A stretch of DNA of 22,955 nucleotides, from the IMG/VR virus record IMGVR_UViG_2541047790_000011. One strand, 5' to 3'. Within the stretch, counting starts at the first letter, position 1. Each line of letters opens with the position of its first letter. A program made the position numbers and the translations under genes. Below, one piece after another: positions 2,999 through 22,955 of the stretch. This DNA is from a virus. Its lineage: Duplodnaviria > Heunggongvirae > Uroviricota > Caudoviricetes. The notes below the pieces were generated by a model. It was given only the letters and a program-made list of their open reading frames with translations. It was not told where the DNA came from and ran no database searches.

Positions 2999-3003
2999 AA
3001 ATA

Positions 3004-5048: not shown

Positions 5049-5062
5049 TTTTTTGTAAAAGC

Positions 5063-5288
5063 CCTCTACCCCATCTACCTGAATGAAATAAACGCATATT
5101 ATTCAACATGATAAGTGGGTAGAGGGATAGGTAGAAGGCTAATAAAACCCCTCTACCTCCTCTACCATGATTAAGGTCGTTTGTGAGGGGCGGGTAGAGG
5201 ATGGGTAGAGGGCCACGAAAAGCCCTCTACCCATCTGAAAGCCGCGCCATTACTGACCTGAAAGATGATTAGGTAGAAGAGGTAGAGG
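5063..5288. repeat. Replication-origin iterons: 11 copies of an 8-mer GGTAGAGG/CCTCTACC (8 exact, 3 one-off variants) in both orientations, flanking an AT-rich stretch
   Basis: Exact copies at 5063, 5118, 5150, 5159, 5193, 5204, 5224 and 5281. Variants at 5072 (CATCTACC), 5130 and 5272 (GGTAGAAG). The AT-rich segment is about 5080-5115. The position just 3' of the initiator gene matches SaPI/PICI origins. Confidence 0.75.
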
Positions 5289-5335
5289 AGGTGCACCACA
5301 ACCTAAAACTTTTTAAACGAGGGGGGTAAAAATAA

Positions 5336-5650
5336 ATGTGCATACATCAAAATCACTTAACAAACATGCCGACCGAAAACATGAATCAGGGGCGACAAAT
5401 GACCAAAATGCGCAGAGACAGAACAGAACCGAAATATCGCGCGTTAGACATGACAGAGCACGCTTTAAAGGTGGCAATCAGAACGATAGACCGCCACGCG
5501 GGGGAAGGATACGCGAAAGCACATCCCGAACTGATAAGCGCATTCATGACCACGGCGGCGGCAAACTTTGCCACGCTGACAGAACGGGAGATTGCCGAAG
5601 CGGAACAGGTAACAACCATCAACGTTAAAACCGGAGAGGTGGAATTATGA
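5336..5650 (+). CDS. Hypothetical protein (104 aa)
   Basis: ORF preceded by the G-rich SD-like GAGGGGGG. Its stop overlaps the ssb start (ATGA at 5647). Several internal ATGs make the start uncertain. Confidence 0.55.
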   Translation: MCIHQNHLTNMPTENMNQGRQMTKMRRDRTEPKYRALDMTEHALKVAIRTIDRHAGEGYAKAHPELISAFMTTAAANFATLTEREIAEAEQVTTINVKTGEVEL

Positions 5651-6072
5651 CGGCACAGATAGCCGCTTACGGGCGGCTGGTGGACGACCCGCAGGTAAAA
5701 CAGACCAGCAAGGGCACACCGATGACGCTGGCGCGTATGGCGGTATCTTTGCCATGCAGCCAGGCACAGGACGGACAGGCGACGTTATGGTTATCGGTCA
5801 TCGCATTTGGCAAACAGGCCGACTTCCTGGCTAAACATCAAAAAGGCGATGTTGCCAGCGTATCCGGCACGATGCAGGTAAGCCAGTGGACCGGACAGAA
5901 CGGAGAAACGCGGCAGGGCTGGCAGGTTATCGCAGACAGCGTGATCAGTGCGCGAACAGCGCGACCGGGCGGCAAAAAAGGCCAGCAGGGGCAGGCCACT
6001 GACGCACTGAACAGGGCAAAACAGCAGACGGGTCAGCACGATGATCCGTACGGGGACAACATACCGTTTTAG
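5647..6072 (+). CDS. ssb: Single-stranded DNA-binding protein
   Basis: 141 aa. The N-terminal half is OB-fold-like ('GRLVDDPQVKQTSKGTPMTLARMAV...WLSVIAFGKQADFLAKHQKGDVASVSGTMQVSQW'). A Gly/Gln-rich linker leads to the acidic tip '...DDPYGDNIPF', comparable to the E. coli SSB tip DDDIPF. Confidence 0.88.
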   Translation: MTAQIAAYGRLVDDPQVKQTSKGTPMTLARMAVSLPCSQAQDGQATLWLSVIAFGKQADFLAKHQKGDVASVSGTMQVSQWTGQNGETRQGWQVIADSVISARTARPGGKKGQQGQATDALNRAKQQTGQHDDPYGDNIPF

Positions 6073-6094
6073 CGACAACAGAGGGGACATTCCA

Positions 6095-6337
6095 GTGACA
6101 TTTGAAGAAGTCCAGCAACATAAAAAGTTTCATGATTTTGATGATCTGGAAACCATGACAGCAAAAAAATATCGCCGTCTGCTTTCTTCCGATGCGTTGT
6201 TTGTTGTGGATCATCATGATTTTCTGCGTAGCTCACTGACCGGGGAAATTTTCGCAACCAACCGTGAGCAGGTGGAAGCGATGATCGAATATCTGTGGAA
6301 AATAAGGCGCAGAATGCGAGATCCCGTGAAACGGTAA
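6095..6337 (+). CDS. Hypothetical protein (80 aa from GTG 6095; alternative ATG at 6041 gives 98 aa)
   Basis: GTG 6095 follows GAGGGGA with a 7-nt spacer and starts just after the ssb stop. ATG 6041 would overlap ssb by 32 nt. Confidence 0.5.
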   Translation: MTFEEVQQHKKFHDFDDLETMTAKKYRRLLSSDALFVVDHHDFLRSSLTGEIFATNREQVEAMIEYLWKIRRRMRDPVKR

Positions 6338-6346
6338 AATAATAAA

Positions 6347-6373
6347 GGCCTGGTAAAATCCAGGCCATTTTTT
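6347..6373. terminator. Bidirectional intrinsic terminator between convergent genes
   Basis: Stem GGCCTGG (6347-6353) pairs with CCAGGCC (6360-6366), with loop TAAAAT. A T-run lies at 6368-6373 on the plus strand. The minus strand reads T-rich after the stem. Confidence 0.7.
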
Positions 6374-6878
6374 ACAGTAAGCCTATTAGGGCACTTGCGC
6401 CAGCCCCAACAATGCTGGCAACGGTACTGTTTTCCAGTAACTGCTTTAATACTGATTTGGCTTGTACATCCCCCGATTTAGCGACTTTTTCAACCAGTTC
6501 AGTGATGCTGATGTTTACCAGCATATGGTTATGCTCACCTATCTGCACTTGATCACCACTAATTGAACCAATGTTAAATGTATTACTTTTAGTTGGCGTC
6601 ATATGTTCATTTCCCGTGATATTTTCAATATAGAGAGTCAACATATTTGGATGATTGGTTCCCTGTCTGCGGGTTCCATTGGGAAGCAACTTCATATCTA
6701 TAATTTTTAGATTTATCTCGTTTTTACCGACACGCTGGATAATGTGTTGACCAATAGTTACTTCCGGTTCATTTGTATATGGAATTAATACCTTGTTTTC
6801 TTTTGCGTTTCTTTTACCTCTGAATGATTCGCCATTAATTATGAAAGTATCAGGGTATACCATTGCGCTTAAATTCAT
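6372..6878 (-). CDS. Hypothetical 168-aa protein with a C-terminal hydrophobic tail; opposite-strand, AT-rich cargo gene of the island
   Basis: Clean ORF with AAAGGA upstream of the ATG. It ends in 'STVASIVGAGASALIGLL', a predicted C-terminal membrane anchor. It is the only large minus-strand gene between the replication and head modules. It is visibly AT-richer than its neighbours (by eye, not computed). Confidence 0.75.
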   Translation of the reverse strand: MNLSAMVYPDTFIINGESFRGKRNAKENKVLIPYTNEPEVTIGQHIIQRVGKNEINLKIIDMKLLPNGTRRQGTNHPNMLTLYIENITGNEHMTPTKSNTFNIGSISGDQVQIGEHNHMLVNISITELVEKVAKSGDVQAKSVLKQLLENSTVASIVGAGASALIGLL

Positions 6879-6944
6879 GATGCGTCCTTTGTTGTAGTCA
6901 GAGACAGCAATAATAGGCCATGGTTTACTTCTTTTGTAAATTAT

Positions 6945-6971
6945 TTGTTCGTGTTCTTTCGTGGTTGTTCG
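6945..6971 (+). promoter_or_regulatory. Three 10-bp-phased direct repeats TTGTTCG / TCTTTCG / TTGTTCG upstream of the head operon
   Basis: Copies start at 6945, 6955 (2 mismatches) and 6965. The same 7-mer occurs three times in the same 10-bp phasing at 14177-14203. Confidence 0.4.
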
Positions 6972-7164
6972 GTCTGACTGACAGGTGTTTACATACTGAT
7001 TTTTATGTATATGTTGTAGCGTGGCACTCAGACGTGAGCCGCCACAATGCCGCCTGACCCCCTGCGCGATGCCGGGTTGATCTGCGAGATGCCGAGAGTG
7101 TCGGGCGGCGCTCCCCCCGTGTTGGTTTCACGTCCTGAATCTTAACCAATACGAGAAAACCTTC

Positions 7165-8334
7165 ATGAAGAAATTAATCGAACTCCGCCAGCAAAAAAAC
7201 GCCCTGAAAAACCAGATGCGATCCCTGCTGGAAAAAGCCGACAGTGAAAACCGTAGTCTGAACGCTGAAGAAGGCAAACAGTTTGATGAACTGCGTGCAA
7301 AAGCTGATGCCCTCGACACAGAAATTTCCCGCCTCGAGTCTGTGGCTGATGAAGAACGCAGCAAGCCAGGAACGGGCATCCAGAAATTATCATCTGATGA
7401 ATTGCGTAACTACATCGTAACCGGAGATGTGCGATCACTGTCCACCAGCACTGACAGCGGCAGGGATGGCGGATATACCGTAATTCCTGAGCTTGATCGC
7501 GAAGTCATGCGCCAGCTACAGGATGACAGTGTTATGCGCGTGATCGCGACCGTGAAGACCGCAAAATCAAATGAGTTTCAGAAACTGGTTTCCACTGGCG
7601 GCGCAACTGTAGGACGAGGCACAGAAGGCAGCGCACGCAGTGAAACCAACACCCCGAAAATTGAACGCGTAACCATCAAGTTGAATCCGATCTACGCCTA
7701 CCCGAAAACCACGCAGGAAATCCTGGATTTTTCAGAGGTGGATATTCTGGGCTGGTTATCCTCCGAAATTGCCGACACGTTCGCCAGCACCGAAGAGGAT
7801 GATTTTGTTAATGGCGACGGTAACGGCAAGCCGAAAGGCTTCATGGCTTACACCCGTGCGGCGACCAGTGACAAAACCCGCGCTTTTGGCACCATTGAAA
7901 AAATAGTAGCGGCAAGTGGAACCGCCATTACAGCGGACGAACTGATCGACATTCTCTACAAGCTGAAAGCGAAATACCGCAAAAATGCCGTATGGGTGAT
8001 GAACTCGGGCACGGCAGGGACACTACAGAAGCTGAAAAATGAGAACGGCGATTATATCTGGCGCGACAGCCTTAAAGAAGGTGCGCCGGATATGTTGCTT
8101 GGTCGTCCTGTTTACTGCCTGGAGTCCATGCCGGACATCGGCGCAGGAAAAGCACCGCTAGCGGTTGGCGATTTCAGTCGTGGTTATTTCATCGTTGATC
8201 ATGTAACAGGGATTCGCACCCGACCGGACAACATTACTGAACCCGGATTCTACAAGGTCCACACGGATAAATATCTGGGCGGTGGTGTGGTGGATTCAAA
8301 CGCCATCAAAATTCTGGAAATGAAAGCTGGCTAG
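7165..8334 (+). CDS. Major capsid protein, HK97 family, with N-terminal coiled-coil scaffolding (delta) domain
   Basis: 389 aa. The N-terminus 'MKKLIELRQQKNALKNQMRSLLEKADSENRSLNAEEGKQFDELRAKADALDTEISRLESV' is delta-domain-like. The rest resembles HK97-family MCPs. A prohead protease and portal follow. Confidence 0.92.
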   Translation: MKKLIELRQQKNALKNQMRSLLEKADSENRSLNAEEGKQFDELRAKADALDTEISRLESVADEERSKPGTGIQKLSSDELRNYIVTGDVRSLSTSTDSGRDGGYTVIPELDREVMRQLQDDSVMRVIATVKTAKSNEFQKLVSTGGATVGRGTEGSARSETNTPKIERVTIKLNPIYAYPKTTQEILDFSEVDILGWLSSEIADTFASTEEDDFVNGDGNGKPKGFMAYTRAATSDKTRAFGTIEKIVAASGTAITADELIDILYKLKAKYRKNAVWVMNSGTAGTLQKLKNENGDYIWRDSLKEGAPDMLLGRPVYCLESMPDIGAGKAPLAVGDFSRGYFIVDHVTGIRTRPDNITEPGFYKVHTDKYLGGGVVDSNAIKILEMKAG

Positions 8335-8346
8335 TCATGAGTAAGG

Positions 8347-8368
8347 AGGAGGCTGCGGCCTCCTTTTT
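8347..8368 (+). terminator. Intrinsic terminator/attenuator between the capsid and protease genes
   Basis: Stem AGGAGGC (8347-8353) pairs with GCCTCCT (8358-8364), loop TGCG, then a T-run to 8368. It sits 13 nt after the MCP stop. Confidence 0.55.
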
Positions 8369-8388
8369 CAGCTTTATGGAGTACACCG

Positions 8389-8949
8389 ATGAAAAACACC
8401 GATTTTGAAATCCGCACATCTGAACTGACCGCCAGCAATAAAAAGCTGGTGGGGTATGCCGTTCGCTGGAACAGCCTTTCAGAAATTATCTGGGACGAAT
8501 TCCGCGAACAGTTCACGCCGGGGGCTTTTGCTGACTATCTGGCGACGGGTAATGATGTGCGCTGCCTGTATGAGCATGACTATACCCAACTGCTGGGGCG
8601 CACCAAATCCGGCACTCTGGTACTGACTGAGGATAACACCGGGTTACGTTTTGAACTGACACCGCCGGATACCCAGCTTGGAAAAGATGTGCTTACGCTG
8701 GTGGAGCGTGGCGACATTACAGGAATGAGCTTTGGTTTTCGCGCATTATGCGAGGAGTGGAGTATCGCGCAAAAACCGTATCTGCGTACCGTAACCGCCG
8801 CTGAACTCCGTGAAATCACAATAACGTCGATGCCTGCTTATCCAGAATCTGGCGTGGAGATTGCCCACCGTTCGTTGTTTGCACAGCACCCTGAATTACG
8901 TCCGACAGGAAATAATCTTCATCGCTGGTCTGAGCTGGCGGGGTTGTGA
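8389..8949 (+). CDS. Prohead (head maturation) serine protease, HK97 family
   Basis: 186 aa. 'LVGYAVRWNSLSE...FTPGAF...DVRCLYEHD...LLGRTKSGTL.L.ED..GL.F....PDT..G.D.L.LV.RGDI.GMSFGF' is the pattern of HK97 gp4-type (S78/U35) proteases. Confidence 0.9.
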   Translation: MKNTDFEIRTSELTASNKKLVGYAVRWNSLSEIIWDEFREQFTPGAFADYLATGNDVRCLYEHDYTQLLGRTKSGTLVLTEDNTGLRFELTPPDTQLGKDVLTLVERGDITGMSFGFRALCEEWSIAQKPYLRTVTAAELREITITSMPAYPESGVEIAHRSLFAQHPELRPTGNNLHRWSELAGL

Positions 8950-8950
8950 T

Positions 8951-10165
8951 ATGTGGTGGCCTTTTAGTCGTAAAAAAAGCGAGCAGCGTAACCTGTCCAT
9001 TGATGATTTTCTGGCGCTGTCCGGCGTACCGAATACCGGATCCGGAGAATATGTTTCTGCCGGGACGGCTGAATCATTGCCTGCAGTGATGAATGCGGTT
9101 TCTGTCATCGCTGAGGCGGTGGCCACGATGCCGTGTTATCTGTATCTGGTACGTAATGACAAGGGCAGGGAGGCGCGGGAATGGCTGGACAGTCACCCGG
9201 TAGATATTCTGCTGAATGAGCAGCCTAATTCGTGCCAGACACCTTACCAGTTTAAACGCACAATGATGCGTCACTGCCTGCTGAACGGTAACGCCTATGC
9301 GGTTATTGAGTGGGGGCAGGACGGGCAGCCAAAATCACTTCATCCTTATGCGCCGGGGTGTGTTGTACCGGAACGCACAGGCGCACACAAATACCGCTAT
9401 ACCATCACCGAACCCTGTACAGGAACGGTGCGCACGTATTTACAGGAAGAAGTTCTGCATCTCCGCTATGCCTCGGATGATGGCTTTCTGGGGCGTTCCC
9501 CCGTCACGATTTGCCGTGAGGCGCTGGGGCTTGGCCTTGCTCAACAGCGTCACGGAGCCAGCATTATGAAAGATGGCATGATGGCGGCAGGGATTATCAC
9601 GTCAGGCGAATGGCTGGACGGCGTGAAAGGTAAACAGGCATTGGATGCTCTGGAACGCTACAAGGGGGCGAAAAATGCCGGAAAAACGCCAATCCTTGAA
9701 GGGGGCATGGATTACAGGCAACTGGGAATGAGTAACCAGGATGCGGAATGGCTGGCCTCCCGTCGCTTCTCCATTGAAGACATCGCCCGCATGTTCAACG
9801 TATCGCCTATTTTTCTGCAGGAATACAGCAACAGCACCTACAGCAATTTCAGCGAGGCAAGCCGCGCGTTTCTGACCATGACAATGCGCCCGTGGCTGGC
9901 GAACTTCGAACAGCAAATCAAGGCCGCTTTGCTGGTGGCTTCTCCCGTACCTGGTACCCGTTATCTGGTTGAGTTTGATTCAGCCGATTTATTACGCGCC
10001 ACACCCACCGAACGTTATGCCACGTATGAGAAAGGGATTAAGAACGGGATCATGAATCCGAACGAAGCCCGTGAGCGTGAGGGTATGCCGCCGCGTGAAG
10101 GTGGTGATGAGTTCAGCCAGGCATGGAAACAGACTGTGGAAATTAAAGGGAGAAAAGATGAGTGA
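8951..10165 (+). CDS. Portal protein, HK97 family
   Basis: 404 aa from ATG 8951, which lies 1 nt after the protease stop. The ORF-track start at 8861 overlaps the protease gene. Size, position and sequence character match HK97-type portals. Confidence 0.9.
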   Translation: MWWPFSRKKSEQRNLSIDDFLALSGVPNTGSGEYVSAGTAESLPAVMNAVSVIAEAVATMPCYLYLVRNDKGREAREWLDSHPVDILLNEQPNSCQTPYQFKRTMMRHCLLNGNAYAVIEWGQDGQPKSLHPYAPGCVVPERTGAHKYRYTITEPCTGTVRTYLQEEVLHLRYASDDGFLGRSPVTICREALGLGLAQQRHGASIMKDGMMAAGIITSGEWLDGVKGKQALDALERYKGAKNAGKTPILEGGMDYRQLGMSNQDAEWLASRRFSIEDIARMFNVSPIFLQEYSNSTYSNFSEASRAFLTMTMRPWLANFEQQIKAALLVASPVPGTRYLVEFDSADLLRATPTERYATYEKGIKNGIMNPNEAREREGMPPREGGDEFSQAWKQTVEIKGRKDE

Positions 10166-10460
10166 AGCCAAAATTACACCTGATGAAGTCAGGGCACATC
10201 TTCGACTTGATGATGATTTATCCGGTGAAGGCGAACTTCTGAAAATGTATACCGATGCGGCGCTGGAAGCCTGCCAGAAGCATATCGGGAAACGTTTTGA
10301 AGACGGGCTGGAATTTACCCCGGCAATGCGTGTTGGTTGCCTGATGTACATCGCTTTCCTGTACGAGAACCGGGAAGCGGTTTCACCAGTGGAGCACTCG
10401 GAACTGCCTATGGCTATTTCTGCGCTCTGGTCAGTTTATCGTGACGTAGGGGTGTACTGA
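10158..10460 (+). CDS. Head-tail connector / adaptor (gp6-like DNA-packaging protein)
   Basis: 100 aa from ATG 10158, overlapping the portal stop. 'ITPDEVRAHLRLDDD...ELLKMYTDAALEACQKHIG' is the typical N-terminus of gp6-like head-tail connector proteins. Confidence 0.8.
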   Translation: MSEAKITPDEVRAHLRLDDDLSGEGELLKMYTDAALEACQKHIGKRFEDGLEFTPAMRVGCLMYIAFLYENREAVSPVEHSELPMAISALWSVYRDVGVY

Positions 10461-10900
10461 TGCCGTGGCAACCATTAAGGCGATGCACTGAGCCTGGCTG
10501 TAATAAGCGCGTGAAGTCCGGCAAGTGTGAAGAGCACAGGCGGGCTGCATGGCGTGCAGAGGATGCCAGACGGGGACACCGCCGCGCGCGCGGGTATTCC
10601 CGACAGTGGGACAAATACCGCGCCCTGTACCTGAGCAAAAACCCGTTATGCGTGAGTTGTCTGGCTAAGGGGATTTATACGCCAGCTCTTGTGGTGGATC
10701 ACATCATTCCCATCAATGGCGGCGGTGATGTTCTCTTCTGGCCTGAGTGGAACCACCAGGCATTGTGCCAGACGTGCCACAACCGTAAGACGACACGGGA
10801 AGATCCCGCCACGAAAGCGAACCGTAAGGCGGGCATGTATCGCGATCAGGAAGAACGGGCGGCACACCGTAACGACTGGATGTATGGCGATGATGACTGA
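10460..10900 (+). CDS. HNH endonuclease (cos-packaging accessory nuclease)
   Basis: 146 aa. The motif 'LCVSCLAKG....A.VVDHIIPI.....F...WNHQALCQTCHNRKT' carries HNH residues plus Cys pairs. It lies just upstream of terS, as in HK97-like cos phages. Confidence 0.9.
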   Translation: MPWQPLRRCTEPGCNKRVKSGKCEEHRRAAWRAEDARRGHRRARGYSRQWDKYRALYLSKNPLCVSCLAKGIYTPALVVDHIIPINGGGDVLFWPEWNHQALCQTCHNRKTTREDPATKANRKAGMYRDQEERAAHRNDWMYGDDD

Positions 10901-11069
10901 ACAGGAGCAAAACAGGCTGATACGTGGGTTGATAAGGCAGCGTGACACATGGAAGACACAGGAGACAGGGCACAAAGCCAACAGGACAGGGCGCACAAAA
11001 CGCACCACAGCGAAGCGATTAACCGACCGTGACCGCGAGGTCATGGAATGTTTTCGCAATCGCTGGTGA
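10884..11069 (+). CDS. Possible small basic protein (about 58-61 aa)
   Basis: This is the distal part of ORF 10689-11069, beginning at the ATG cluster 10884/10890/10893 that overlaps the HNH stop. Arg/Lys/Thr-rich. No family recognised; it may be non-coding. Confidence 0.3.
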   Translation: MAMMTEQEQNRLIRGLIRQRDTWKTQETGHKANRTGRTKRTTAKRLTDRDREVMECFRNRW

Positions 11070-11188
11070 GGCCGTCAGAGGGGGTGGGGGTGGTTTTCAG
11101 GACGAAACCGTCCCTGCCGGACACCGACCGCCTCCCCAAATTTTTATGCACGGGAATTTTTTGAAAAATAATCTGACGAAAAATAAGC
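11070..11188. other. Candidate cos (cohesive-end) region
   Basis: 119-bp non-coding gap between the HNH module and terS. It has a G-run (11078-11093, GAGGGGGTGGGGGTGG) and a C-rich tract (11124-11137). This is the canonical cos position in HNH-dependent HK97-like packaging systems. Confidence 0.4.
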
Positions 11189-11545
11189 ATGGCAAGACCA
11201 CCGAAAGCCCCCGCCTACCTGGATGATATCGCCGTGAAGCAGTGGCGGGAAAAATCGCGGCAGCTTGCGGAACGGGGAGACCTGACCCCCGCCGACTGGA
11301 GCAATCTGGAACTGTATTGCGTCAACTACTCCATTTACCGGAAAGCCGTTGCAGACCTTGCGGCGCGCGGGTTCAGCATTGTTAACAGTCAGGGCGGCGA
11401 GAGCAGAAACCCCGCATTAAGCGCAAAATCCGACGCTGAAAGAGTGATGATAAAAATGGCCTCCTTGCTCGGTTTTGACCCGATAAGCCGCCGTAAAAAT
11501 CCACCGGAAACAGAAGAAGAGGACGAGCTTGACCGCCTGGAATAA
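11189..11545 (+). CDS. terS: Terminase small subunit, P27 family
   Basis: 118 aa. 'PPKAPAYLDD.A...W......L...G.LT.AD...LE.YC..Y..YR.A...L...G......G....NPA' matches the P27-family TerS pattern. It overlaps the terL start. Confidence 0.88.
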   Translation: MARPPKAPAYLDDIAVKQWREKSRQLAERGDLTPADWSNLELYCVNYSIYRKAVADLAARGFSIVNSQGGESRNPALSAKSDAERVMIKMASLLGFDPISRRKNPPETEEEDELDRLE

Positions 11546-13190
11546 GTACGCAGAAGACGTAAAAACGGGCAAAATTCCGGCCTGTAAACGGCTGAAACAG
11601 GCCGTTAAACGGTACTTTTCGGACCTTGAAAGCCCCCTTTACACGTTCGATCGTGAGGTTGTGGAGCGGTTTATTGCCTTTTCCAGGGTGTGCGCGCACG
11701 TAAAAGGGCCGATGCGTGGCAGACCCATTGAGCTGGAGCCGTGGCAGCAGTTCGCCTTTGCGTGCATCCTCGGCTTTAAGGTTAAGGCCACCGGACGGCG
11801 CAAATACACGAGCGCCTTTATCGAAGTGCCGCGCAAAAATGCGAAATCCACGACCGCCGCGATTCTGGCTAACTGGTTTCTGATTATGGAGAACGGTCAG
11901 CAGGATATCTACACCGCAGCGGTGAGCCGTGACCAGGCGCGGATCGTCTTTGATGATGCGCGTCAGATGTGCCTTTTATCCCGACCGTTACGCAGGCGGG
12001 TGAATATTCAGGCGCATAAGGTGATACACCCGAAAACCAACAGCCTGTTAAAGCCACTGGCAGCAAAAGCGGCAACCATTGAGGGGACAAACCCGAGTCT
12101 TGCCATTGTGGATGAATATCACCTGCACCCAGACAACGGGGTTTATTCCGCACTTGATATGGGGATGGGCGCACGTCCCGAAGGGCTGTTATTTGCCATT
12201 ACCACATCGGGCAGTAACGTCGTTTCAGCCTGTAAGCAGCACTATGATTATTGCTGCCAGATCCTGGACGGCGAAGAGGTCAACGATTCAATTTTTGTAC
12301 TGATTTACGAACTGGACGACGAAAACGAGGTTGATGATCCGGCGATGTGGATAAAGGCTAACCCTAACATCGATGTTTCCGTCGATCGTGAAAAACTGGC
12401 CTCAACCATCCAGAAAGCGCGGGGTATTCCGTCGCAATGGGTGGAAATGCTCACCAAGCGATTCAATATCTGGTGTCAGGGGGCTACGCCGTGGATGGGT
12501 AACGGTGCATGGGCGGAGTGTGCCGGAACGTTCGCGGAGGCGGATTTATACGGGCAGGAGTGCTACGCGGGGCTGGACTTATCATCAACCAGCGATATTT
12601 CCAGCGTGTGCTATGCCTTCCCGGTCGGTAAAAAGATTATGCTGGTTTCCCGTCACTATCTGCCGGAATTTCAGCTACAGAATCCCGCCAATAAAAACCG
12701 CGCCATCTATCGCCAGTGGGTAAAGGCGGGCTGGATACGCACAACACCGGGTGACTGCATTGATTATGACCGTATCCGTGATGACATCATGGCGGATGCA
12801 GAGAATTTCAATATCAGGCTGGTGGGCTTCGATACATGGAACGCCACGCACCTGAGGACGCAGTTACAGGGCGCAGGATTTGAGGTGGAGCCGTTCCCGC
12901 AAACCTACCTCAGATTCAGTCCGGCGGCGAAATCGTTCGAAGTTTTTGTTAACCGGAAGGTGATTGTGCATCGTGGTGATCCGGTGCTGGCCTGGTCAAT
13001 GAGTAATGTTGTGATGCAGAGTGACGCGAACGCCAATATCAAGCCGAACAAGAAAAAATCATCCAACAAGATAGACCCGAGCGTTGCGGCGCTGATGGCG
13101 TTTGGCACATTCCAGGCAGAGCACGAGGACTTTGCATTCGATATGAGCGACAGCCACAAAGAGCGGCTTGCGGCGTTTGATGGGGTATGA
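11529..13190 (+). CDS. terL: Terminase large subunit
   Basis: 553 aa. ATPase motifs 'VPRKNAKSTTAA' (Walker A-like) and 'LAIVDEYH' (Walker B) are present, followed by a C-terminal nuclease-domain-sized region. Confidence 0.93.
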   Translation: MTAWNKYAEDVKTGKIPACKRLKQAVKRYFSDLESPLYTFDREVVERFIAFSRVCAHVKGPMRGRPIELEPWQQFAFACILGFKVKATGRRKYTSAFIEVPRKNAKSTTAAILANWFLIMENGQQDIYTAAVSRDQARIVFDDARQMCLLSRPLRRRVNIQAHKVIHPKTNSLLKPLAAKAATIEGTNPSLAIVDEYHLHPDNGVYSALDMGMGARPEGLLFAITTSGSNVVSACKQHYDYCCQILDGEEVNDSIFVLIYELDDENEVDDPAMWIKANPNIDVSVDREKLASTIQKARGIPSQWVEMLTKRFNIWCQGATPWMGNGAWAECAGTFAEADLYGQECYAGLDLSSTSDISSVCYAFPVGKKIMLVSRHYLPEFQLQNPANKNRAIYRQWVKAGWIRTTPGDCIDYDRIRDDIMADAENFNIRLVGFDTWNATHLRTQLQGAGFEVEPFPQTYLRFSPAAKSFEVFVNRKVIVHRGDPVLAWSMSNVVMQSDANANIKPNKKKSSNKIDPSVAALMAFGTFQAEHEDFAFDMSDSHKERLAAFDGV

Positions 13191-13480
13191 CGAGAATGAG
13201 CGAAACCGAACTACTAAAAATAATCCGCCGTGTTACCGGAGCCAGCCAGACAGCAGACAAACAGGAGGCCACGCAGCCGGACAGCGTGATAGCCGAAAAT
13301 TACGCGCGTGTGGTGGCTGAGGTGATGCGCCGTGACGGTATTGAGCTTAACGGCGTGGATATGCGCAACATACGAACCAGAGTCCTTGAGTTGCTGGCAT
13401 ACCGTCGCCGTTCTCAACAACGGAGGGAGAGCGCGAAAAATACTTATCAGTGGAAGAAGCCGGAACGGTTGCGGCGGTAA
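13187..13480 (+). CDS. Hypothetical protein (97 aa), last gene of the island
   Basis: Its start overlaps the terL stop (ATGA). No family recognised. Confidence 0.5.
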   Translation: MTRMSETELLKIIRRVTGASQTADKQEATQPDSVIAENYARVVAEVMRRDGIELNGVDMRNIRTRVLELLAYRRRSQQRRESAKNTYQWKKPERLRR

Positions 13481-13593
13481 CTTGCAGATATTCCCGATAA
13501 CGTAAAATTGCGTTGGCTGGCAGAGTGCAAATTTGCACGATGGCCTAACCCATTGATTGTTTCGGAAACCTCAATTTGAGGAGGCCGGACAGC

Positions 13594-17537: not shown

Positions 17538-17830
17538 GAAGAATTTTTATGATAATTATTGTTTGCTCATACTGTAAACAAGTTGTGCAGTATATCTACA
17601 TCTGATGCGCCGCGCGATAAATAAGCCGCAATCCGTGAGATAAATGGACACAGTGCGGCTTTTCAGATACGGAAAAGGAATTACAGATTATCAGTCGTAA
17701 GCAACCCACGCTTACTGGCAAGGATGGTTTACAATGCTGAAAGCGCCTCCCGGCAATACCGCCAATCATCACTCAAACAGAAAAAATTATTGCTCATGGT
17801 TCACTCCGGTAATGAATCGTTTTACAGGCG

Positions 17831-18424
17831 TCATTCGGTCATGGAAAGATTGCTGATTTCGGTAATCCCGGCAATTTCCTCGCTGACGGATTTCAGTTCG
17901 ATTTCCAGCTTGGTGCGTTCGTTGACCAGCGCAGCTACGGTCTTACGGCGGTCTGCCAGTGACGGAAGGTTGTCATTGCCCCACGCCACGCTTTTATCCT
18001 TTTTGAGCGCTTCGGTCAGGCGGGTGGCGACCACATCCGGGAAGAAAAAGCATAACTTACGCATAACCGTCATCCCGACATCAGCCAGGGGGACATTCCC
18101 GCTCAGTCCCACCAGACGGAACAGACCAGAAATATCACCATTCTCATTTTCCAGATTACCCCAGCGTTCGGCGTTCCCTTCACTGCCGGAACCGTTGCAA
18201 AGAGCAAGCTTGAATGACTGATATTCTTCCTGCCCGAATCGCTCAATATATTCAGGAATAAAGGAACAGTAATCATTAAGCGATAATGGCATATCCTGTA
18301 ATGTGGTTATTTCACTGTTAATCTCTCCAATTCGGCGGGAGAGCTTTTCTTTCTGCTCATTCAGGGAGGCAAGATTATTTTTAACGGCGTTCAGTGCTTC
18401 GATAAGGGAAATAACAGGTTTCAT
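17831..18424 (-). CDS. Hypothetical coiled-coil protein (197 aa), possibly scaffold-like
   Basis: ATG 18424 is preceded by GGAG and lies 2 nt after the upstream gene's stop. Heptad-like N- and C-terminal segments are present ('LNAVKNNLASLNEQKEKLSRRIGEINSEITTLQ', 'RRKTVAALVNERTKLEIELKSVSEEIAG'). The ORF-track start at 18493 is an over-extension. Confidence 0.7.
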   Translation of the reverse strand: MKPVISLIEALNAVKNNLASLNEQKEKLSRRIGEINSEITTLQDMPLSLNDYCSFIPEYIERFGQEEYQSFKLALCNGSGSEGNAERWGNLENENGDISGLFRLVGLSGNVPLADVGMTVMRKLCFFFPDVVATRLTEALKKDKSVAWGNDNLPSLADRRKTVAALVNERTKLEIELKSVSEEIAGITEISNLSMTE

Positions 18425-18425: not shown

Positions 18426-19040
18426 TTAATAACTCCAGATGAAAGGCGTGGTGAGGGCGAGCGCTTCAGAATAGGAGACATTGCAGGCTGCACTTACGTC
18501 CTTTATTAAAAGGTGCTGTGCTGCCCTCTGACTGTCTGCTATGCCGTCAAACTCTGAAAAATGAACGTGTGATTCATTGTGATAAAAGCAAACCGGGTAA
18601 CAGCTTTCCATAAATTCTACCTGCGCCAGTCCCTTTACTGCTGGAGGCTGTGAGCCGAGAAAACCGATATGCTGAAGATACCAGGCACCGATTCCTGCCG
18701 GGTTGTTCGCTTCGCCGGGTCTATAAAATGCCGCAGACACTTTCCTGTAACGCCCTGCGCGTACCAGTCCCAGCAGGGTTTCATCAGGCTTAACCAGCGC
18801 GAAAAGCCTGCCGTTTTTACTTATCAGCCCAGTTGTTTCACCATAAGATGGGCTGTTGCTGGCCGGATGTCCAATACACAGCGGCGCACCATAACCCGCA
18901 CGATGATAGCCGTTATAGGCTGCCGCCATGTTGTCGATATCCTCGTCGGAAAAGGCAATTTCCTGCCCAGCCATCGTGATATGCGTTCCCGCCCGGAATA
19001 TCTCGATAGTTTTCCAGTTGCCAATATCGATATCTTTCAT
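18426..19040 (-). CDS. Phage head maturation protease / scaffold N-domain-like protein (P2 gpO / Mu I-like pattern); function tentative
   Basis: 204 aa. The pattern 'W..IEIFRAGTH....G..I.F...DID.MAAAYN......APL.IGHP....P.YG....L...G.LFA.V.P.....LV..G.YRKVSAAFY.P......G.WYL.HIGFLG..PPAVKGL' resembles phage prohead protease/scaffold families, with candidate His in GHP and Ser in KVSA. This is recalled from memory, not searched. Confidence 0.55.
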   Translation of the reverse strand: MKDIDIGNWKTIEIFRAGTHITMAGQEIAFSDEDIDNMAAAYNGYHRAGYGAPLCIGHPASNSPSYGETTGLISKNGRLFALVKPDETLLGLVRAGRYRKVSAAFYRPGEANNPAGIGAWYLQHIGFLGSQPPAVKGLAQVEFMESCYPVCFYHNESHVHFSEFDGIADSQRAAQHLLIKDVSAACNVSYSEALALTTPFIWSY

Positions 19041-19041: not shown

Positions 19042-19569
19042 TTAAATTACCCCATATTTCGCATCGCGCTGTATTTTATTTTTCTTGCGTTCGGCGGCTA
19101 TAATCTGATAAATACACTGAATGGAACGCTTGTATTTTTTTGATAGTTCAAAAATAGAGATACCCTGATAAAAATCAGCCAGTATTTTTGAGTTCCTGTC
19201 GAAAGTGTTTTTTGATGCGCCCATAGGGATATATATATTCCCCCTGAAAAATGTATTCCTGAGACATTCAGTGATGGCAGGAGAAAGTTTTTCGGCTTGC
19301 GAACAGAGGTAAGGTATGGTTCCTAATGTCTGCTCAATAGATTCAGTCAGCTCCTGTAGGAAGCGAACTGCCTTAGGTGCTCTTTCTCGGTGTTCAGCCA
19401 TATACCCCTGGCAGCCACCAAGGTTATCAGAGATACCCAACACAATATGATTAGCCGCACTGCAGGACTGTTGCCGTGAATACCCTTTGTTGATCAGAAA
19501 CACTTCTATAGCATCGCCCATTGCCCCCAAAGTATCGGATGAAGCATACAATCCTTCTCTTGTAATCAT
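19042..19569 (-). CDS. Mor/C-family transcriptional activator-like protein
   Basis: 175 aa from ATG 19569, with GAGGT 6 nt upstream. 'IVLGISDNLGGCQGYM' and 'GNIYIPMG' resemble Mu Mor 'VVAICKHLGGGQVYIPRG'. The C-terminal HTH 'ILADFYQGISIFELSKKYKRSIQCIYQIIAAERK' resembles Mor 'IWNDFNGRNVSELTTRYGVTFNTVYKAIRR'. Confidence 0.7.
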   Translation of the reverse strand: MITREGLYASSDTLGAMGDAIEVFLINKGYSRQQSCSAANHIVLGISDNLGGCQGYMAEHRERAPKAVRFLQELTESIEQTLGTIPYLCSQAEKLSPAITECLRNTFFRGNIYIPMGASKNTFDRNSKILADFYQGISIFELSKKYKRSIQCIYQIIAAERKKNKIQRDAKYGVI

Positions 19570-19601
19570 AATCACACCTCGTCAACGATAAATATGCGCA
19601 C

Positions 19602-19809: not shown

Positions 19810-20088
19810 CTATTCCTTACTCTCCTGATCAAGACGATTACCTATCAGGTTAATCATTGCCATTGCATCAGATAGCAGGATACTGTTAACAAGTGCTAAG
19901 GGCGTCTGTGTTGATTTATCATCAACGGCAACAGAAAGTTCATCATTCAGGCGACGAACGGCCTCAAGACGGCTAAAGGCGGCTTCCCATATTTCTGTAC
20001 TCGGGGCATCAGCATTAACAAACAAAACATCGTAAGACGTTCCCTGAGACTCATGAGGACAGGCTATGAAATTAGCAGTAGCTTTCAT
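19810..20088 (-). CDS. Hypothetical protein (92 aa)
   Basis: The ORF's start overlaps the stop of the upstream gene (ATGA at 20085-20088). No family confidently recognised. Confidence 0.65.
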   Translation of the reverse strand: MKATANFIACPHESQGTSYDVLFVNADAPSTEIWEAAFSRLEAVRRLNDELSVAVDDKSTQTPLALVNSILLSDAMAMINLIGNRLDQESKE

Positions 20089-20564
20089 TTTGCAGTCCTC
20101 CGGTTAATTATAAATTTATTATAAATTTCATAACTTGCGGCATTCAGTCCTGGACTGTATTTATCTGCCAGTGAACAGGCAATGAATTCTTCAATCGATT
20201 TAGTCAGTATATCAAGCTCAGTTGTTCCGGAATAACGCAAGGCCACTCGAAATAATTCTCGGCAGTATGTTTTTTTATGGTCAATATTTTGTAACTGCTG
20301 TTGCGGTATATCACGACGTTCAAATATATTAACAAATGCATTAAGCGGGAAGCTATGATTTGCCTGCGGATATTGCTCATAGGAAAACACCACAGTATTA
20401 CCGTTGCATTCTTTAACAATTGCATTCATACCGCTGTTAATTTCAATATACCACTCTCCTATACATGGAGGATTGATAGCTTCGCTCTGTGCCTTGATTA
20501 AAGGTAAGCGGATAGTATCCACTTGGTTTGTTGCAACTGAATCGTTAGACTTGTCGTTAGCCAT
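20085..20564 (-). CDS. Hypothetical protein (159 aa)
   Basis: ATG 20564 is preceded by AGGA at an 8-nt spacing. The ORF-track start at 20582 lacks an SD. No family recognised. Confidence 0.65.
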   Translation of the reverse strand: MANDKSNDSVATNQVDTIRLPLIKAQSEAINPPCIGEWYIEINSGMNAIVKECNGNTVVFSYEQYPQANHSFPLNAFVNIFERRDIPQQQLQNIDHKKTYCRELFRVALRYSGTTELDILTKSIEEFIACSLADKYSPGLNAASYEIYNKFIINRRTAK

Positions 20565-20660
20565 GACTGTTATCCTACACATAACGGTTTTTGGTTAGGC
20601 CATAGCAAGTGCTCGCAACATTTGTTATGGCCGTTTCTTTGGCCCTTTCCCTGTGATAAG

Positions 20661-20701: not shown

Positions 20702-20893
20702 ATGTCAACTATCTTGAGAGATAAAAGCCAAAAAGGGGCAGGGAAAGCCCCCATGTTTAACGTTAGAATATCGCCAGATTTGAAAGAACAGTTTGAAATA
20801 CAAGCAAAAAAAGAAGGTGTTAGCTTGGGAAACTGGCTCAAGGAACTTGGCAGGGCGGAACTAAAACGTAAGGGGATCGAGCCGAAAGGGTGA
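20702..20893 (+). CDS. Arc/CopG-like ribbon-helix-helix DNA-binding protein (63 aa; more likely 46 aa from ATG 20753)
   Basis: 'MFNVRISPDLKEQFEIQAKKEGVSLGNWLKELGRAEL' matches the Arc/Mnt/CopG beta-alpha-alpha pattern (compare Arc 'MPQFNLRWPREVLDLVRKVAEENGRSVNSEIYQRV'). AGGGA lies 8 nt before ATG 20753. No SD precedes 20702. Confidence 0.7.
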   Translation: MSTILRDKSQKGAGKAPMFNVRISPDLKEQFEIQAKKEGVSLGNWLKELGRAELKRKGIEPKG

Positions 20894-20919: not shown

Positions 20920-21757
20920 AAAGCGAAATCGCTTTCACATTTAAAGTTCAAGATAGCCAATGCCATCACCAAAGCGGACAGCGCTGTCCGCTTTTCATCA
21001 GTAAAAACCACATATTTACGCCAAAACGCTCAACGTTGAGCGCTACGTACCCCGGCAAAAGCGCAAGCGTCTGCGCTTTTGGTAACAAGCAATCAGCATT
21101 TAAATGCGGACAACGTTGACCGTTTTGAGGAATCAATGTCGGCTGAGCAAAAACGACAACGTTGTCGTTTTTAAAACGGCAAGCGCTTACCGTTTCAGAT
21201 TATCGAGGCGGTAAGAGTTTACCGTTTGGTGTCAATTATGTTCAATAAGCGAAAACGTTTTCGCATTTTCTCACCTAACGCGGCAAACCTTCTTTGTCCT
21301 AGATGGAAAAACGACAGCGCTGTCGTTTCTAATCCGGGGTTCCAAACCGCTCAGCGCTGAGCGGTTCTGTGGCTTTCTTACAATCCAAATCCGCCAACGT
21401 TGGCAGATTTGCAAATATCACATATGATTGATGGTCCCGAATCACAAATGTCCCAGCGCGGGGATATTTCAAGTAGTTCAATCATTTCATGCGCTGGCAG
21501 TCATCTCCAAAACTGCGAACGCCTGCCCTTTCAGTACAGTTTGGTAATATATATTGGTAAGCTTTACTTGTAGAAATATAAAACTCCAAAAGCGCCAGCG
21601 CTGGCGCTTTGTAAGGCCAGCAATATCATTCCCAGCGCTGGAATACTAAAAGGCGGATTCCTGCATCTTAATTTGAGATGGAATCTCATGGCAATCCAGT
21701 GTTAACGTAGGGTTTTAGCCAGTACTCACGACTTGAATATGCCAGCGCTGGCACATT
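20920..21757. repeat. ORF-free array of at least 16 sequence-variable palindromes with conserved centres AGCGCT or AACGTT and A-tract/T-tract flanks; class unknown
   Basis: Read directly. Perfect palindromes: 20971-20994 (24 bp), 21027-21042 (16), 21149-21172 (24), 21249-21264 (16), 21309-21328 (20), 21345-21366 (22), 21589-21610 (22), 21740-21753 (14). Near-perfect units: 20920, 21056, 21103, 21174, 21209, 21386, 21446, 21632. Confidence 0.85.
21554..21582 (+). promoter_or_regulatory. Candidate sigma70 promoter inside the palindrome array
   Basis: TTGGTA (21554-21559), a 17-bp spacer, TATAAA (21577-21582), in the only strongly AT-rich stretch of the array. It would start transcription at about the 21589 palindrome. 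Confidence 0.3.
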
Positions 21758-21975
21758 TGAAGTCTGGTAACATCAATAATCTAATGACACCTGATGTAAT
21801 TTTGAACCCTGAACTGGAATCAACCCCAAATTTAATGGCAACAGCTATCAGCCAGATTACTGATGAACGTGACCTGCTGAACCAATTACTTGACCAAGCA
21901 CAGATGGCCGATGCATTCGAGCAATTTTCCCGAACGGTTCGGACTTCTAAACTGGCTTTTGTGAAGGAAAACAAG
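21739..21975 (+). pseudogene. 5' fragment (about 79 codons) of an unknown gene, truncated by IS insertion
   Basis: The ORF from ATG 21739 (or TTG 21733) runs straight into the IS terminal inverted repeat at 21976. Its last residues and its stop are IS-derived. Confidence 0.5.
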
Positions 21976-22955
21976 GGCTTTGTTGAATAAATCAGATTTC
22001 GGGTAAGTCTCCCCCGTAGCGGGTTGTGTTTTCAGGCAATACGCACGCTTTCAGGCATACCTGCTTTCGTCATTTTGTTCAGCGCTCGTACCAGGGCCAT
22101 AGCCTCTGCAACCTGACCATCGTAGTCACGCAGTGTCAGTGAACCTCCGAACAGCTGTTTTACCCGGTACATCGCCGTTTCCGCTATCGAGCGACGGTTA
22201 TAATCTGTTGTCCATTTCCACCGCGCATTACTCCCGGTCAGCCGCTGATTCGCAACAGCACGGTTACGGTCTGCATATTCACCGGGCCAGTAACCCGCGC
22301 CTTTTCGGGGCGGGATAAGCGCGCTGATTTTCTTACGCCGCAGTTCATCGTGACAGAGCCGGGTGTCGTAAGCGCCGTCTGCCGATGCTGCCCTGATTTT
22401 TCTGTGAGTCTGCCGGATAAGACCCGGGAAGGCTTCTGAGTCCGTCACATTGTTCAGCGACAGGTCTGCACAGATGATTTCATGTGTTTTGCTGTCAACT
22501 GCCAGATGCAACTTTCGCCATATACGACGGCGTTCTTTGCCGTGTTTTTTGACTTTCCATTCGCCTTCACCAAAGACCTTCAGCCCGGTGGAATCAATCA
22601 CCAGATGCGCGATTTCACCTCGGGTGAACGTTTTGAAACTGACATTAACCGACTTTGCGCGCTTGCTGACACTGGTGTAATCCGGGCAGCGCAACGGAAC
22701 ATTCATCAGTGTAAAAATGGAATCAATAAAACCCTGTGCAGCCCGCAGGGTCAACCTGAACACGCGTTTAATGACCAGAACGGTGGTGATGGCGAGATCA
22801 GAATAGCGCTGAGGTCTTCCCCGTGATGAAGGCGTTGCCGACTCATACCAGGCCTGAATAGCTTCATCATCCAGCCAGAAAGTTATGGAGCCACGGTTGA
22901 TGAGGGCTTTATTGTAGGTGGGCCAGTTGGTGATTTTGAACTTTTGCTTTGCCAC
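21976..22955 (-). mobile_element. IS903/IS102-family insertion sequence (IS5 family), partial; it runs off the window end
   Basis: The terminal inverted repeat GGCTTTGTTGAATAAATC is at 21976-21993. The internal sequence and transposase are recognisably IS903-like. The far inverted repeat, about 80 bp beyond the window, is not visible. Confidence 0.92.
22032..22955 (-). CDS. IS903/IS102 transposase (DDE, 307 aa, GTG start at the window edge)
   Basis: The translation 'MAKQKFKITNWPTYNKALINRGSITFWLDDEAIQAWYESATPSSRGRPQRYSDLAITTVL...' is near-identical, from memory, to the IS903 transposase. Confidence 0.95.
   Translation of the reverse strand: MAKQKFKITNWPTYNKALINRGSITFWLDDEAIQAWYESATPSSRGRPQRYSDLAITTVLVIKRVFRLTLRAAQGFIDSIFTLMNVPLRCPDYTSVSKRAKSVNVSFKTFTRGEIAHLVIDSTGLKVFGEGEWKVKKHGKERRRIWRKLHLAVDSKTHEIICADLSLNNVTDSEAFPGLIRQTHRKIRAASADGAYDTRLCHDELRRKKISALIPPRKGAGYWPGEYADRNRAVANQRLTGSNARWKWTTDYNRRSIAETAMYRVKQLFGGSLTLRDYDGQVAEAMALVRALNKMTKAGMPESVRIA

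Follow-up and report, generated by a model that had tools for sequence, protein, structure and literature searches.

The palindrome array and its units

The DNA analysed here, a window of 22,955 bp from the chromosome of Escherichia coli sequence type 131 (ST131; 100% identity to SaT040, ZH063 and others), carries between positions 20920 and 21757 an array of palindromes whose arms vary while their centres recur. A gene for a ribbon-helix-helix (RHH) protein lies directly upstream of the array, the remnant of a DUF3102-family early phage gene lies downstream, and all three belong to a mini element with Mu-type ends. The original prediction had noted the palindromes; it covered neither the Mu-ended element nor the counterpart that the palindromes have within a gene of transposable phages, which is our main subject.

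Scans for perfect and one-mismatch palindromes located every unit listed earlier at its coordinates. Perfect palindromes of at least 12 bp number 16 in the window, and 10 of the 16 lie inside 20971-21753: P2, P3, P6, P9, P10, P11, the core of P12, P14, P16 and an incidental GCATTTAAATGC at 21096. Allowing one mismatch picks up P1, P5, P7, P12, P13 and P15. AACGTT occurs five times in 20920-21757, as had been counted, and nine times in the other ~22 kb of the window; AGCGCT occurs eight times and seven times, respectively. The earlier count of seven AGCGCT copies in the array holds for the unit centres, the eighth being an incidental copy at 21039. Twelve units have one of these two hexamers at the centre, and others are one step off (AGCGTC, AGCGCG). 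The spacing is irregular (24-142 bp), and a 5' CAAA is found in most units, a 3' TTTG in fewer (P4, P5, P12, P14 and P16). As had been claimed, the array contains no credible open reading frame, nor does the RefSeq annotation of identical ST131 genomes place one there.

The units are written below as arm-centre-arm, and their arms are compared with alleles of the phage site described in the next section; loci outside the window are given by number (L001 and so on).

20920-20935: P1, decayed, AAAGCGA-AA-TCGCTTT; its counterpart in L002 is AAAAGCGAA-AACGTT-TTCGCTTTT.
20971-20994: P2, perfect, AAAGCGGAC-AGCGCT-GTCCGCTTT; arm 1 nucleotide (nt) off phage allele ACGGAC.
21027-21042: P3, perfect, CGCTC-AACGTT-GAGCG; arm ACGCTC is the phage allele of L146.
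21056-21081: P4, perfect arms and asymmetric centre, CAAAAGCGCA-AGCGTC-TGCGCTTTTG; arm AGCGCA is the phage allele of L143.
21103-21126: P5, GCGGAC-AACGTT-GACCG; its A·A mismatch is identical to that of phage allele ACGGAC...GACCGT (L169/L200).
21149-21172: P6, perfect, AAAAACGAC-AACGTT-GTCGTTTTT; arm AACGAC is a phage allele (L156).
21174-21195: P7, AAACGGCA-AGCGCT-TACCGTTT; arm ACGGCA is a phage allele (L154).
21209-21224: P8, decayed AACGTT unit, CGGTAA-GAGT-TTACCG; relatives have CGGTA-AACGTT-TACCG.
21249-21264: P9, perfect, GCGAA-AACGTT-TTCGC; arm AGCGAA is a phage allele (L160).
21309-21328: P10, perfect, AAACGAC-AGCGCT-GTCGTTT; arm AACGAC is a phage allele (L198).
21345-21366: P11, perfect, AACCGCTC-AGCGCT-GAGCGGTT; one compensated base pair off phage allele ACGCTC-AGCGCT (L144, JJ1887).
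21386-21411: P12, one mismatch, CAAATCCGCC-AACGTT-GGCAGATTTG.
21446-21469: P13, AAATGTCCC-AGCGCG-GGGATATTT; perfect in L008, arm 1 nt off phage allele AGTCCC.
21488-21535: two decayed units, intact in relatives as ATTCCC-AACGTT/AGCGCT and AAACGGCA-AGCGCC.
21589-21610: P14, perfect, AAAGCGCC-AGCGCT-GGCGCTTT; arm AGCGCC is the commonest phage allele (at least 20 phage contigs).
21630-21643: P15, (AT)TCCC-AGCGCT-GGAA; compare CATTCCC-AGCGCT-GGGAATG of phage L185.
21736-21757: P16, AATATGCC-AGCGCT-GGCACATT; arm TATGCC is a phage allele (L208).

Individual units decay. The stretch at 21488-21535, rightly described before as decayed in the window, holds good palindromes in a related element (L001), namely TCATTCCC-AACGTT-GGGAATCA and AAACGGCA-AGCGCC-TGCCGTTT. 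Orthologous units can be recognised between lineages with their order kept, and palindrome columns are 82% identical as compared with 68% for the spacers. Deletions that distinguish the arrays run from centre to centre and leave chimeric units, such as AAATGTCCC-AGCGCT-GGGAAT.

The array had been judged unlike CRISPR (clustered regularly interspaced short palindromic repeats), REP/BIME (repetitive extragenic palindromes and the mosaic elements built from them), iterons, ToxI repeats and ordinary terminators, and this judgement stands. The repeats are inverted, direct repeats being absent from the window array; the arms all differ, the spacing is irregular, and the window has no cas genes, which sets the array apart from CRISPR. 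Unlike REP/BIME, the segment is single-copy where it is present (32 of 5,426 E. coli genomes), and in every case it lies within the mini element. Common to the units are the RRCGYY centre and the A/T flanks, while the N6 arms differ, which does not fit an iteron or centromere-type repeat. A terminator rule that asks for a G+C-rich stem-loop and, after it, a tract of eight positions with five or more T is passed by one unit (21249-21264), and in our terminator and promoter scan the number of terminator-like sites does not exceed that in shuffles. Rfam 15 gave no match at gathering score in the window or in L002 (STnc40, 21 bits against 45; R1162 antisense RNA, 32 against 55 and outside the array).

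A counterpart palindrome in phage DUF3102 genes

The full-length B3-like transposable prophages that we examined each contain exactly one palindrome of the array's class, and it lies within the DUF3102 gene, the neighbour directly upstream of transposase genes A and B in full phages. Of the 5,426 complete E. coli genomes, 634 carry a DUF3102 gene. In five E. coli prophages the palindrome falls at nt ~345-375 of the gene:

L143: CCAAAAGCGCA-AGCGCT-TGCGCTTTTGG
L144: CCAAAACGCTC-AGCGCT-GAGCGTTTTGG
L145: CCAAATGTGCC-AACGTT-GGCACATTTGG
L146: CAAAACGCTC-AACGTT-GAGCGTTTTG
L147: CCAAAAGCGAC-AACGTT-GTCGCTTTTGG

The general form of the phage site, present once in each B3-like (Mu-like) transposable phage of Enterobacterales, is (C/T)CAAA-N6-RRCGYY-N6-TTT(G/A)G; in the full-length B3-like prophages it reads CCAAA-N6-AGCGCT/AACGTT-N6-TTTGG. 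We compared 73 phage loci: nearly all have the palindrome in register, and 21 distinct full alleles were obtained. Phages whose DUF3102 proteins are just 50-70% identical carry AAAAGCGCC-AGCGCT/AACGTT at the same position, and a clade that is ~30% identical in DUF3102 has CCAAAT-N5-GACGTC-N5-ATTTGA there. We define a class of DUF3102-gene palindromes as 24-32-bp dyads with a CG centre inside an RRCGYY hexamer, flanked 5' by (C/T)CAAA and 3' by TTT(G/A)G, and with N6 arms from the phages. The array units belong to this class by their RRCGYY centres, their flanks and their N6 arms, which are drawn from the phage repertoire.

The arms of the window array equal a phage allele in 8 of 14 cases and come within 1 nt of one in 13 of 14, whereas 20,000 trials with random arms yielded on average ~0.09 exact matches and never more than 3. 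The exact allele of P2, GCGGAC-AGCGCT, was found in the satellite element and in no phage gene. The correspondence is confined to the palindrome: hidden Markov models of the DUF3102 gene flanks find nothing in the arrays, and the palindrome alone aligns. The idea that the array units are fragments of the DUF3102 gene was rejected on this ground.

The DUF3102 genes of the JBD67 type have, in place of the single even palindrome at ~nt 350, two odd palindromes ~75 bp apart, near nt 150 and 225. These read CCGAAC-G-GTTCGG or CCTCGAC-G-GTCGAGG (L004, 9115-9131 and 9190-9208; L058, 6628-6642 and 6701-6721) and are also seen in the ST131 element (window 21930-21942; L005 14186-14198). Internal dyad sites thus seem to be a trait of the DUF3102 family. 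Two contigs of full phages (L216, 9001-9408; L217, 9001-9342) end 340-400 nt into the DUF3102 gene, approximately at the palindrome position, and the palindrome may break short-read assemblies.

The co-variation of arms, which the original prediction had named as a check, is pronounced. Across 29 alleles, 94.1% of cells are paired (73.3% in shuffles), and 85 cells have changes on both sides (29±4 in shuffles, with none of 500 reaching 85). The covariation score is 0.566 and drops to 0.09 or below when the partner column is slid by 1-3. The centre pairs -2/+2 and -3/+3 covary as well, although they are too close to pair in a hairpin, which indicates that the constraint is the dyad symmetry of duplex DNA. 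The centre is symmetric in 35 of 36 phage DUF3102 genes with a readable site, where AGCGTT and AACGCT would be synonymous; asymmetric centres do occur in arrays. The CAAA/TTTG flanks and the RRCGYY centres are kept in the non-coding arrays and hence are not merely coding constraints. Mismatches within array units comprise 12 G·T, 30 A·C and 33 of transversion type, with no G·U bias. The earlier preference for symmetry at the DNA level over selection on an RNA hairpin is thus borne out.

These data bear directly on an action at the RNA level, in which hairpins strung along a transcript from the RHH promoter would terminate or attenuate transcription, soak up a protein or act as an antisense RNA. 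Since a palindromic RNA is its own complement, the array hairpins would in the antisense version kiss the identical hairpin in the early DUF3102-A-B mRNA of a helper and knock down its transposase. The segment 20894-21760 does fold strongly as RNA, as the fold check suggested earlier now shows (-289.5 kcal/mol versus -228.7±7.6 for dinucleotide shuffles, z = -8.0), and the match to phage alleles would suit antisense targeting, for which the self-complementary loops could nucleate kissing. The array also lies just 3' of a regulator gene in two architectures (RHH here, a repressor in the phage L224). The A-tract and T-tract flanks of the units resemble bidirectional terminators, and AAAAGCGCCAGCGCTGGCGCTTTT is an evident terminator elsewhere (L225), but the T-tracts measure 3-5 nt and a single unit passes the terminator rule. 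Moreover, the units match no Rfam family and do not behave as an RNA hairpin family under structural selection: G·U wobble is not enriched, and a hairpin needs no covariation at the loop positions -2/+2 and -3/+3. Action through RNA would also leave unexplained the perfect palindrome of the phage and the tracking of its arms by an upstream helix-turn-helix (HTH)-like helix, described below. We consider such an action unlikely, and with it the sponge or multi-terminator hypothesis put forward originally.

The same centre covariation argues against single-stranded or cruciform hairpins as substrates for a structure-specific recombinase or nuclease, in the manner of attC sites or of REP sequences and their RAYT transposases, since it points to duplex symmetry and not to a looped hairpin. 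Structure is indeed kept in the array while arm sequence varies, and perfect palindromes of 24-32 bp could extrude as cruciforms. However, the units are far shorter than attC and fully symmetric, and no integron integrase, HUH/Y1 enzyme, RAYT or protelomerase is linked to the array loci examined. This hypothesis, also among the original three, is in our view extremely unlikely. Further candidates were dropped: Mom modification sites, whose motif is unfit; the Mu target consensus, which does not fit; protelomerase sites, no such enzyme being present; and a strong gyrase site or an enhancer, for which the data pointed neither way.

The DUF3102 protein is conserved in alignment except for hypervariable residues ~85-125. 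In an AlphaFold2 model of low confidence, residues 84-92 of this block form a predicted helix that a turn separates from another at 96-109, and the helix that the palindrome encodes comes next. The HTH-like motif has the consensus LG[ILM]-xx-R-T-A-Q-R-M-M (LG[ILM]xxRTAQRMMQAS) and is encoded 60-100 bp upstream of the palindrome; with this sequence, the second helix of the block may be an HTH recognition helix. Each arm allele goes with one helix variant, without exception in 31 haplotypes:

Arm AGCGCA: helix SKRTAQV
Arm AGCGAC or AACGAC: helix H[VE]RAAQR
Arm AGCGAA: helix EPRIAQK
Arm ACGCTC: helix APQVARR
Arm ACGGAC: helix EPRVARR
Arm ACGGCA: helix AERTARL
Arm ACGGCC: helix GDRAARR
Arm TGTGCC or TATGCC: helix [PA]YRTSVR
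Arm AGTCCC: helix PKSTAHR

For arm AGCGCC, the helix P[EA]RTAQR is retained in 13 proteins of 50-70% identity whose transposases are 46-88% identical. In the GACGTC clade (~30% identity), three loci combine TGCGTC with EPRQAQR, and the remaining alleles each go with a helix of their own. One ST131 genome holds both the mini element and a DUF3102 phage, and the allele of this resident phage, AGCGAC-AACGTT, is of the same helix class as P6.

Two other explanations of arm specificity were set aside. A distant co-evolving partner, such as the Ner-like HTH genes or the N-terminus of the transposase, was rejected because allele association is confined to ~±150 columns. The centre type (AGCGCT or AACGTT) was rejected as a specificity determinant because it tracks the downstream haplotype and not the helix: in the region aligned for linkage (residues 120-167 of L143; L143 12980-13123), it is in complete linkage with residues 127, 157, 161 and 162. 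A haplotype boundary, presumably formed by recombination, therefore falls at the palindrome.

Such a boundary would be expected if template switching and illegitimate recombination had stacked junction palindromes during module exchange, leaving the array as a functionless by-product. The centre-to-centre deletions with their chimeric units, the decay of several units, and the remnant downstream of the array in ST131, which is a patchwork of DUF3102 lineages, would all agree with this origin. Against this, the units carry no gene-flank homology, the palindromes are conserved above the spacers (82% versus 68%), flanks and centres remain constrained in non-coding DNA, and arrays have recurred independently in at least four architectures and with two centre classes. 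Junction formation also fails to explain why each phage has one perfect site at a fixed codon position, down to the clade of ~30% protein identity. We regard it as an improbable origin of the array.

The mini element and related arrays

The array-bearing element has a Mu-type left end at 17603 and comprises ~5.3 kb plus the insertion sequence (IS) IS903. Its right end lies ~3 kb past the array in complete ST131 genomes, where the element is bounded by the 6-bp target duplication TACATC. Its features within the window are as follows.

17603-17738: left end of the element, TGATGCGCCGCGCGATAAATAAGCC...GTGAGATAAAT..., matching L002 6055-6190; the left flank TACATC recurs after the right end (L005, ~15074).
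17831-18424, minus strand: p197 homologue, coiled-coil, in the leftward operon of the element.
18426-19040, minus strand: p204 protein, whose N-terminal part resembles a Mu-type head protease domain (phrog_976).
19042-19575, minus strand: Mor-family transcription activator (PF08765, E = 3e-15).
19810-20088, minus strand: 92-aa protein.
20085-20582, minus strand: 165-aa protein, a shortened homologue of p245 of the 7.8-kb elements, divergent from the RHH gene.
20702-20893, plus strand: RHH (HicB/Arc-like) gene directly upstream of the array (PF05534, E = 1.3e-6; phrog_228, Arc-like repressor).
21784-21975, plus strand: N-terminal remnant of a JBD67-type DUF3102-family early gene (phrog_4623; JBD67 gp14), split by IS903.
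21930-21942: odd palindrome CCGAAC-G-GTTCGG in the DUF3102 remnant, with a second copy 75 bp downstream, past the IS, as in JBD67 gp14.
21976-22955, minus strand: IS903 (IS5 family) with the 9-bp target duplication GAAAACAAG; not part of the array.

The truncated gene reported earlier after the array is present and is interrupted by IS903 at 21975/21976, but its start is the ATG at 21784 and not position 21739; it resumes beyond IS903 in complete ST131 genomes. Next to the left end, a TMP-like (tape-measure) gene has been lost through a deletion of ~2.4 kb at 17738/17741, and the window from 17741 onward matches L002 from 8570 onward.

Relatives of 7.8 kb carry leftward genes for TMP-like, p197, p204, Mor, p96 and p245 proteins, and rightward the RHH gene, the array, ~700 bp of non-coding DNA and a Gp27-family gene. 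Their insertion sites include ynbC (AW1.7), the interval between dacD and sbmC (CX21, MS 115-1) and a Citrobacter IncF plasmid, and serW/infA is a further insertion site of the 5.3-7.8-kb elements; other relatives occur in Erwinia, Intestinirhabdus, an Advenella metagenome-assembled genome, and viral and metagenome contigs. The ends of the element are TGAT...TCA, with GTGAGATAAAT motifs repeated at both, and every insertion examined, at four different sites, has its own 6-bp target duplication (for example TACATC, AGTGAA or ACTCAT). A full B3-like transposable prophage with DUF3102 has a Mor-proximal end that shares 78% identity with the right end of the element, and the 5.3-7.8-kb elements contain no transposase (DDE) gene. 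With Mu-type ends, target duplications, several insertion sites and no transposase, these 5-8-kb elements have the properties of non-autonomous derivatives of transposable phages and look, from their sequences, like natural mini-Mu elements or satellites of B3-like phages. Members of the family are the element in the window, from 17603 to past the window end (L005 8710-15074), L002 6055-13872, L003 6191-13812 and L001. No element with both an intact array and a full DUF3102 gene was found, the homologues of the window's truncated gene all being short or cut at contig ends. A megablast search gave no match among phage records and one plasmid match, the Citrobacter element.

Several other observations concern the element and its surroundings. 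The 7.8-kb elements contain, at L002 12683-12968 and L001 6480-6765 and not in the window, two 34-bp inverted repeats around a segment of ~220 bp, in which a strong terminator and a near-consensus promoter (TTGATT-17-TATAAT) are found. Conservation of this region, at 93%, is above that of the array, and the segment could be invertible or regulatory. In the ST131 element past IS903 (L005 14140-14700), the rest of the JBD67-type gene is followed by an E. coli-type palindrome, AAAAGCGCC-AACGTT-GGCGCTTTT, and then by a second, E. coli-type DUF3102 N-terminal fragment. These pieces come from different lineages; the gene region has been reshuffled. Between the divergent 165-aa and RHH genes, the window forms a strong hairpin at 20557-20633, GGCCATAGCAAGTGC...GTTATGGCC, with a weak Rfam match to an R1162-like antisense RNA on the minus strand (31.7 bits versus a gathering score of 55, E = 0.004). 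Positions 1-13500 are occupied by a separate, capsid-forming island beside clpS-clpA that resembles phage-inducible chromosomal islands (PICIs) and is without tail genes. It encodes an integrase (1-1239), a D5-type primase (3300-5048), the single-stranded DNA-binding protein SSB, an HK97 capsid protein (7165-8334), a prohead protease, a portal protein, an HNH protein, TerS (P27 family) and TerL (11529-13190).

Arrays of the same class are found beyond the Mu-ended elements. The full transposable phage L224 (features at 5980-6440 and 10155-10182) has its own palindrome, AAAAGCGCC-AGCGCT with arm AGCGCC, in its DUF3102 gene, and in addition a mini array of 5-6 heterologous units just 3' of an XRE-type repressor gene, with no RHH gene adjoining. 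The centres of this mini array are GACGTC, TTCGAA, GGCGCT and GGCGCC, and the phage's own allele, AGCGCC-AGCGCT, is missing from it. L261 (7179-8174) carries eight units with GACGTC or GCCGGC centres in an island with a P4-type integrase, a primase, a small terminase, a TMP-like gene and p197/p220 homologues. The array of L277 (332-1149), in which a 98-bp tandem repeat accounts for four identical units, is followed directly by a Mor gene and a tape-measure gene; L253 (1811-2078) holds a further array.

The gene neighbourhood raises the question of whether the array provides binding or decoy sites for the RHH or Mor-like protein that the element itself encodes. RHH dimers read short palindromes, such as the MetJ box AGACGTCT; the RHH gene comes immediately before the array in every Mu-ended element, and the L277 array adjoins a Mor gene. 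The association breaks down elsewhere, however: about 100 loci have an RHH homologue but no array, and the L224 array stands beside an XRE-type repressor. A single protein would not need at least 12 different arms, and the arms match alleles of the phage gene and nothing in the RHH or Mor genes. An RHH or Mor-like partner is thus very improbable. The original hypothesis of a protein-binding array is still the one closest to our data, with the putative partner changed from the RHH or Mor-like protein to DUF3102 of helper-type phages.

A possible bank of sites for a polymorphic phage protein

On the basis of these sequence comparisons, the array brings together in tandem ~16 allelic variants of a single cis-acting site in duplex DNA, and we assign a probability of about one half to the reading that it is a bank of binding sites for DUF3102. 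A DUF3102 dimer, the most likely partner, would bind the palindrome inside its own gene, and the phages would have diversified into many specificity classes of helix and site. The array would carry one site per class in place of a single site, so that the DUF3102 of any related phage, whether induced or infecting, would find a cognate unit. In this way a transposase-less element or a rival phage could capture the early protein of whichever related phage turns active, and so sense, titrate or exploit many helpers, as a 'key ring' or as a decoy. Capture might serve to sense the helper and so turn on gp27 or the Mor operon, to weaken it through a decoy, or to recruit its transposition machinery. 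We rank sensing or decoy above recruitment, since arrays are also present in an island of the integrase/primase type and in a phage whose array omits its own allele.

Several points weigh against a bank of DUF3102 sites. Binding of DUF3102 to the site is inferred from correlation, that is, from the mapping of helix to arm; with just 60-100 bp between helix and arms, linkage could account for part of it, and when association was scanned column by column, no partner emerged outside the local block, allele association staying within ~±150 columns. In Pfam searches to E = 10 with the HTH-like segment, the E. coli-type DUF3102 matched no HTH family and returned DUF3102 itself, and the sole HTH match was a weak one to HTH_28 in the JBD67 type (E = 0.047). 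A PDB sequence search with a DUF3102 profile returned nothing meaningful, and the AlphaFold2 model has a predicted local distance difference test score (pLDDT) of 53. A site of 28 bp is long for a single HTH dimer, and the array units have more A·C than G·T mismatches (30 versus 12), which this reading does not explain. The absence of the own allele from an array rests on one phage, L224. Several window units have decayed and the element carries an IS and deletions, so the ST131 copy may have ceased to function. Any role of the array is speculative, as it depends on what DUF3102 does in the phage.

A bank of this kind would share features with several known systems. Satellites that carry helper cis-sites exploit several helpers: SaPIbov5 carries both a pac and a cos site, and PICIs carry cos sites. 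Like them, the mini element is non-autonomous and would have DNA sites recognised by helpers and a wider helper range. It differs in that the sites are not packaging sites but ~16 tandem allelic variants of an early-operon palindrome, in having transposable (Mu-like) phages as candidate helpers, and in that Mu-type ends take the place of an integrase. Repeat arrays that bind proteins include iterons, centromeres (parC, parS, omega heptads) and titration loci (datA, P1 incA). These resemble the array as tandem, non-coding, short sites for a DNA-binding protein that is dimeric (putatively so here), and parS inside parB/spo0J offers a parallel for a site within the protein's own gene. In those arrays, however, one sequence serves one protein, whereas here the arms differ from unit to unit, the spacing is irregular and each unit matches the class of another phage.

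Integron attC sites likewise keep symmetry while sequence varies, and CRISPR is likewise a tandem archive of sequences that match different mobile elements. Unlike either, the array has no integron integrase, Cas genes, repeat-spacer layout or direct repeats; its units are fully symmetric duplex palindromes of 24-32 bp, and its reader is probably a phage protein and not a host enzyme. Mu itself has a cis element in its early control region, the enhancer (the internal activation sequence (IAS) with operators O1-O2), and mini-Mu needs transposase in trans, as the mini element would. The Mu IAS, in contrast, has no palindrome array and is read by domain I-alpha of MuA and by the repressor, and the site described here lies within DUF3102, a gene missing from Mu.

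A broader interpretation, which we offer as a tentative possibility, is that a phage early gene holds a self-contained specificity module, an HTH-like helix together with its own site, that diversifies in an arms race. Parasitic elements, both Mu-ended mini elements and islands of the integrase type, and rival phages would archive the site alleles of other phages in tandem arrays as a repertoire read by protein, which would sense or disarm competitors through decoy or sensor DNA in a logic akin to that of CRISPR.

Our searches of the searchable literature turned up nothing published on the array, the phage palindrome, what DUF3102 does or the Mu-ended mini elements, and the present work points to satellites of transposable phages that have not been described before. 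Relative to helper-site satellites and to titration or centromere arrays, the novelty would be that many alleles of a site are collected, for a phage protein that is itself polymorphic. If the interpretation is correct, DUF3102, an uncharacterised protein encoded beside the transposase genes of very common Mu-like prophages, would gain a testable function, namely sequence-specific DNA binding at a site within its own gene; both the array and its phage counterpart are simple sequences that can be cloned. The more than 20 matched helix/site alleles would then constitute a natural recognition code useful for the study of how HTH specificity evolves. Finally, satellites and competing phages would have a new way of handling polymorphic helpers, by carrying the whole repertoire of helper sites.

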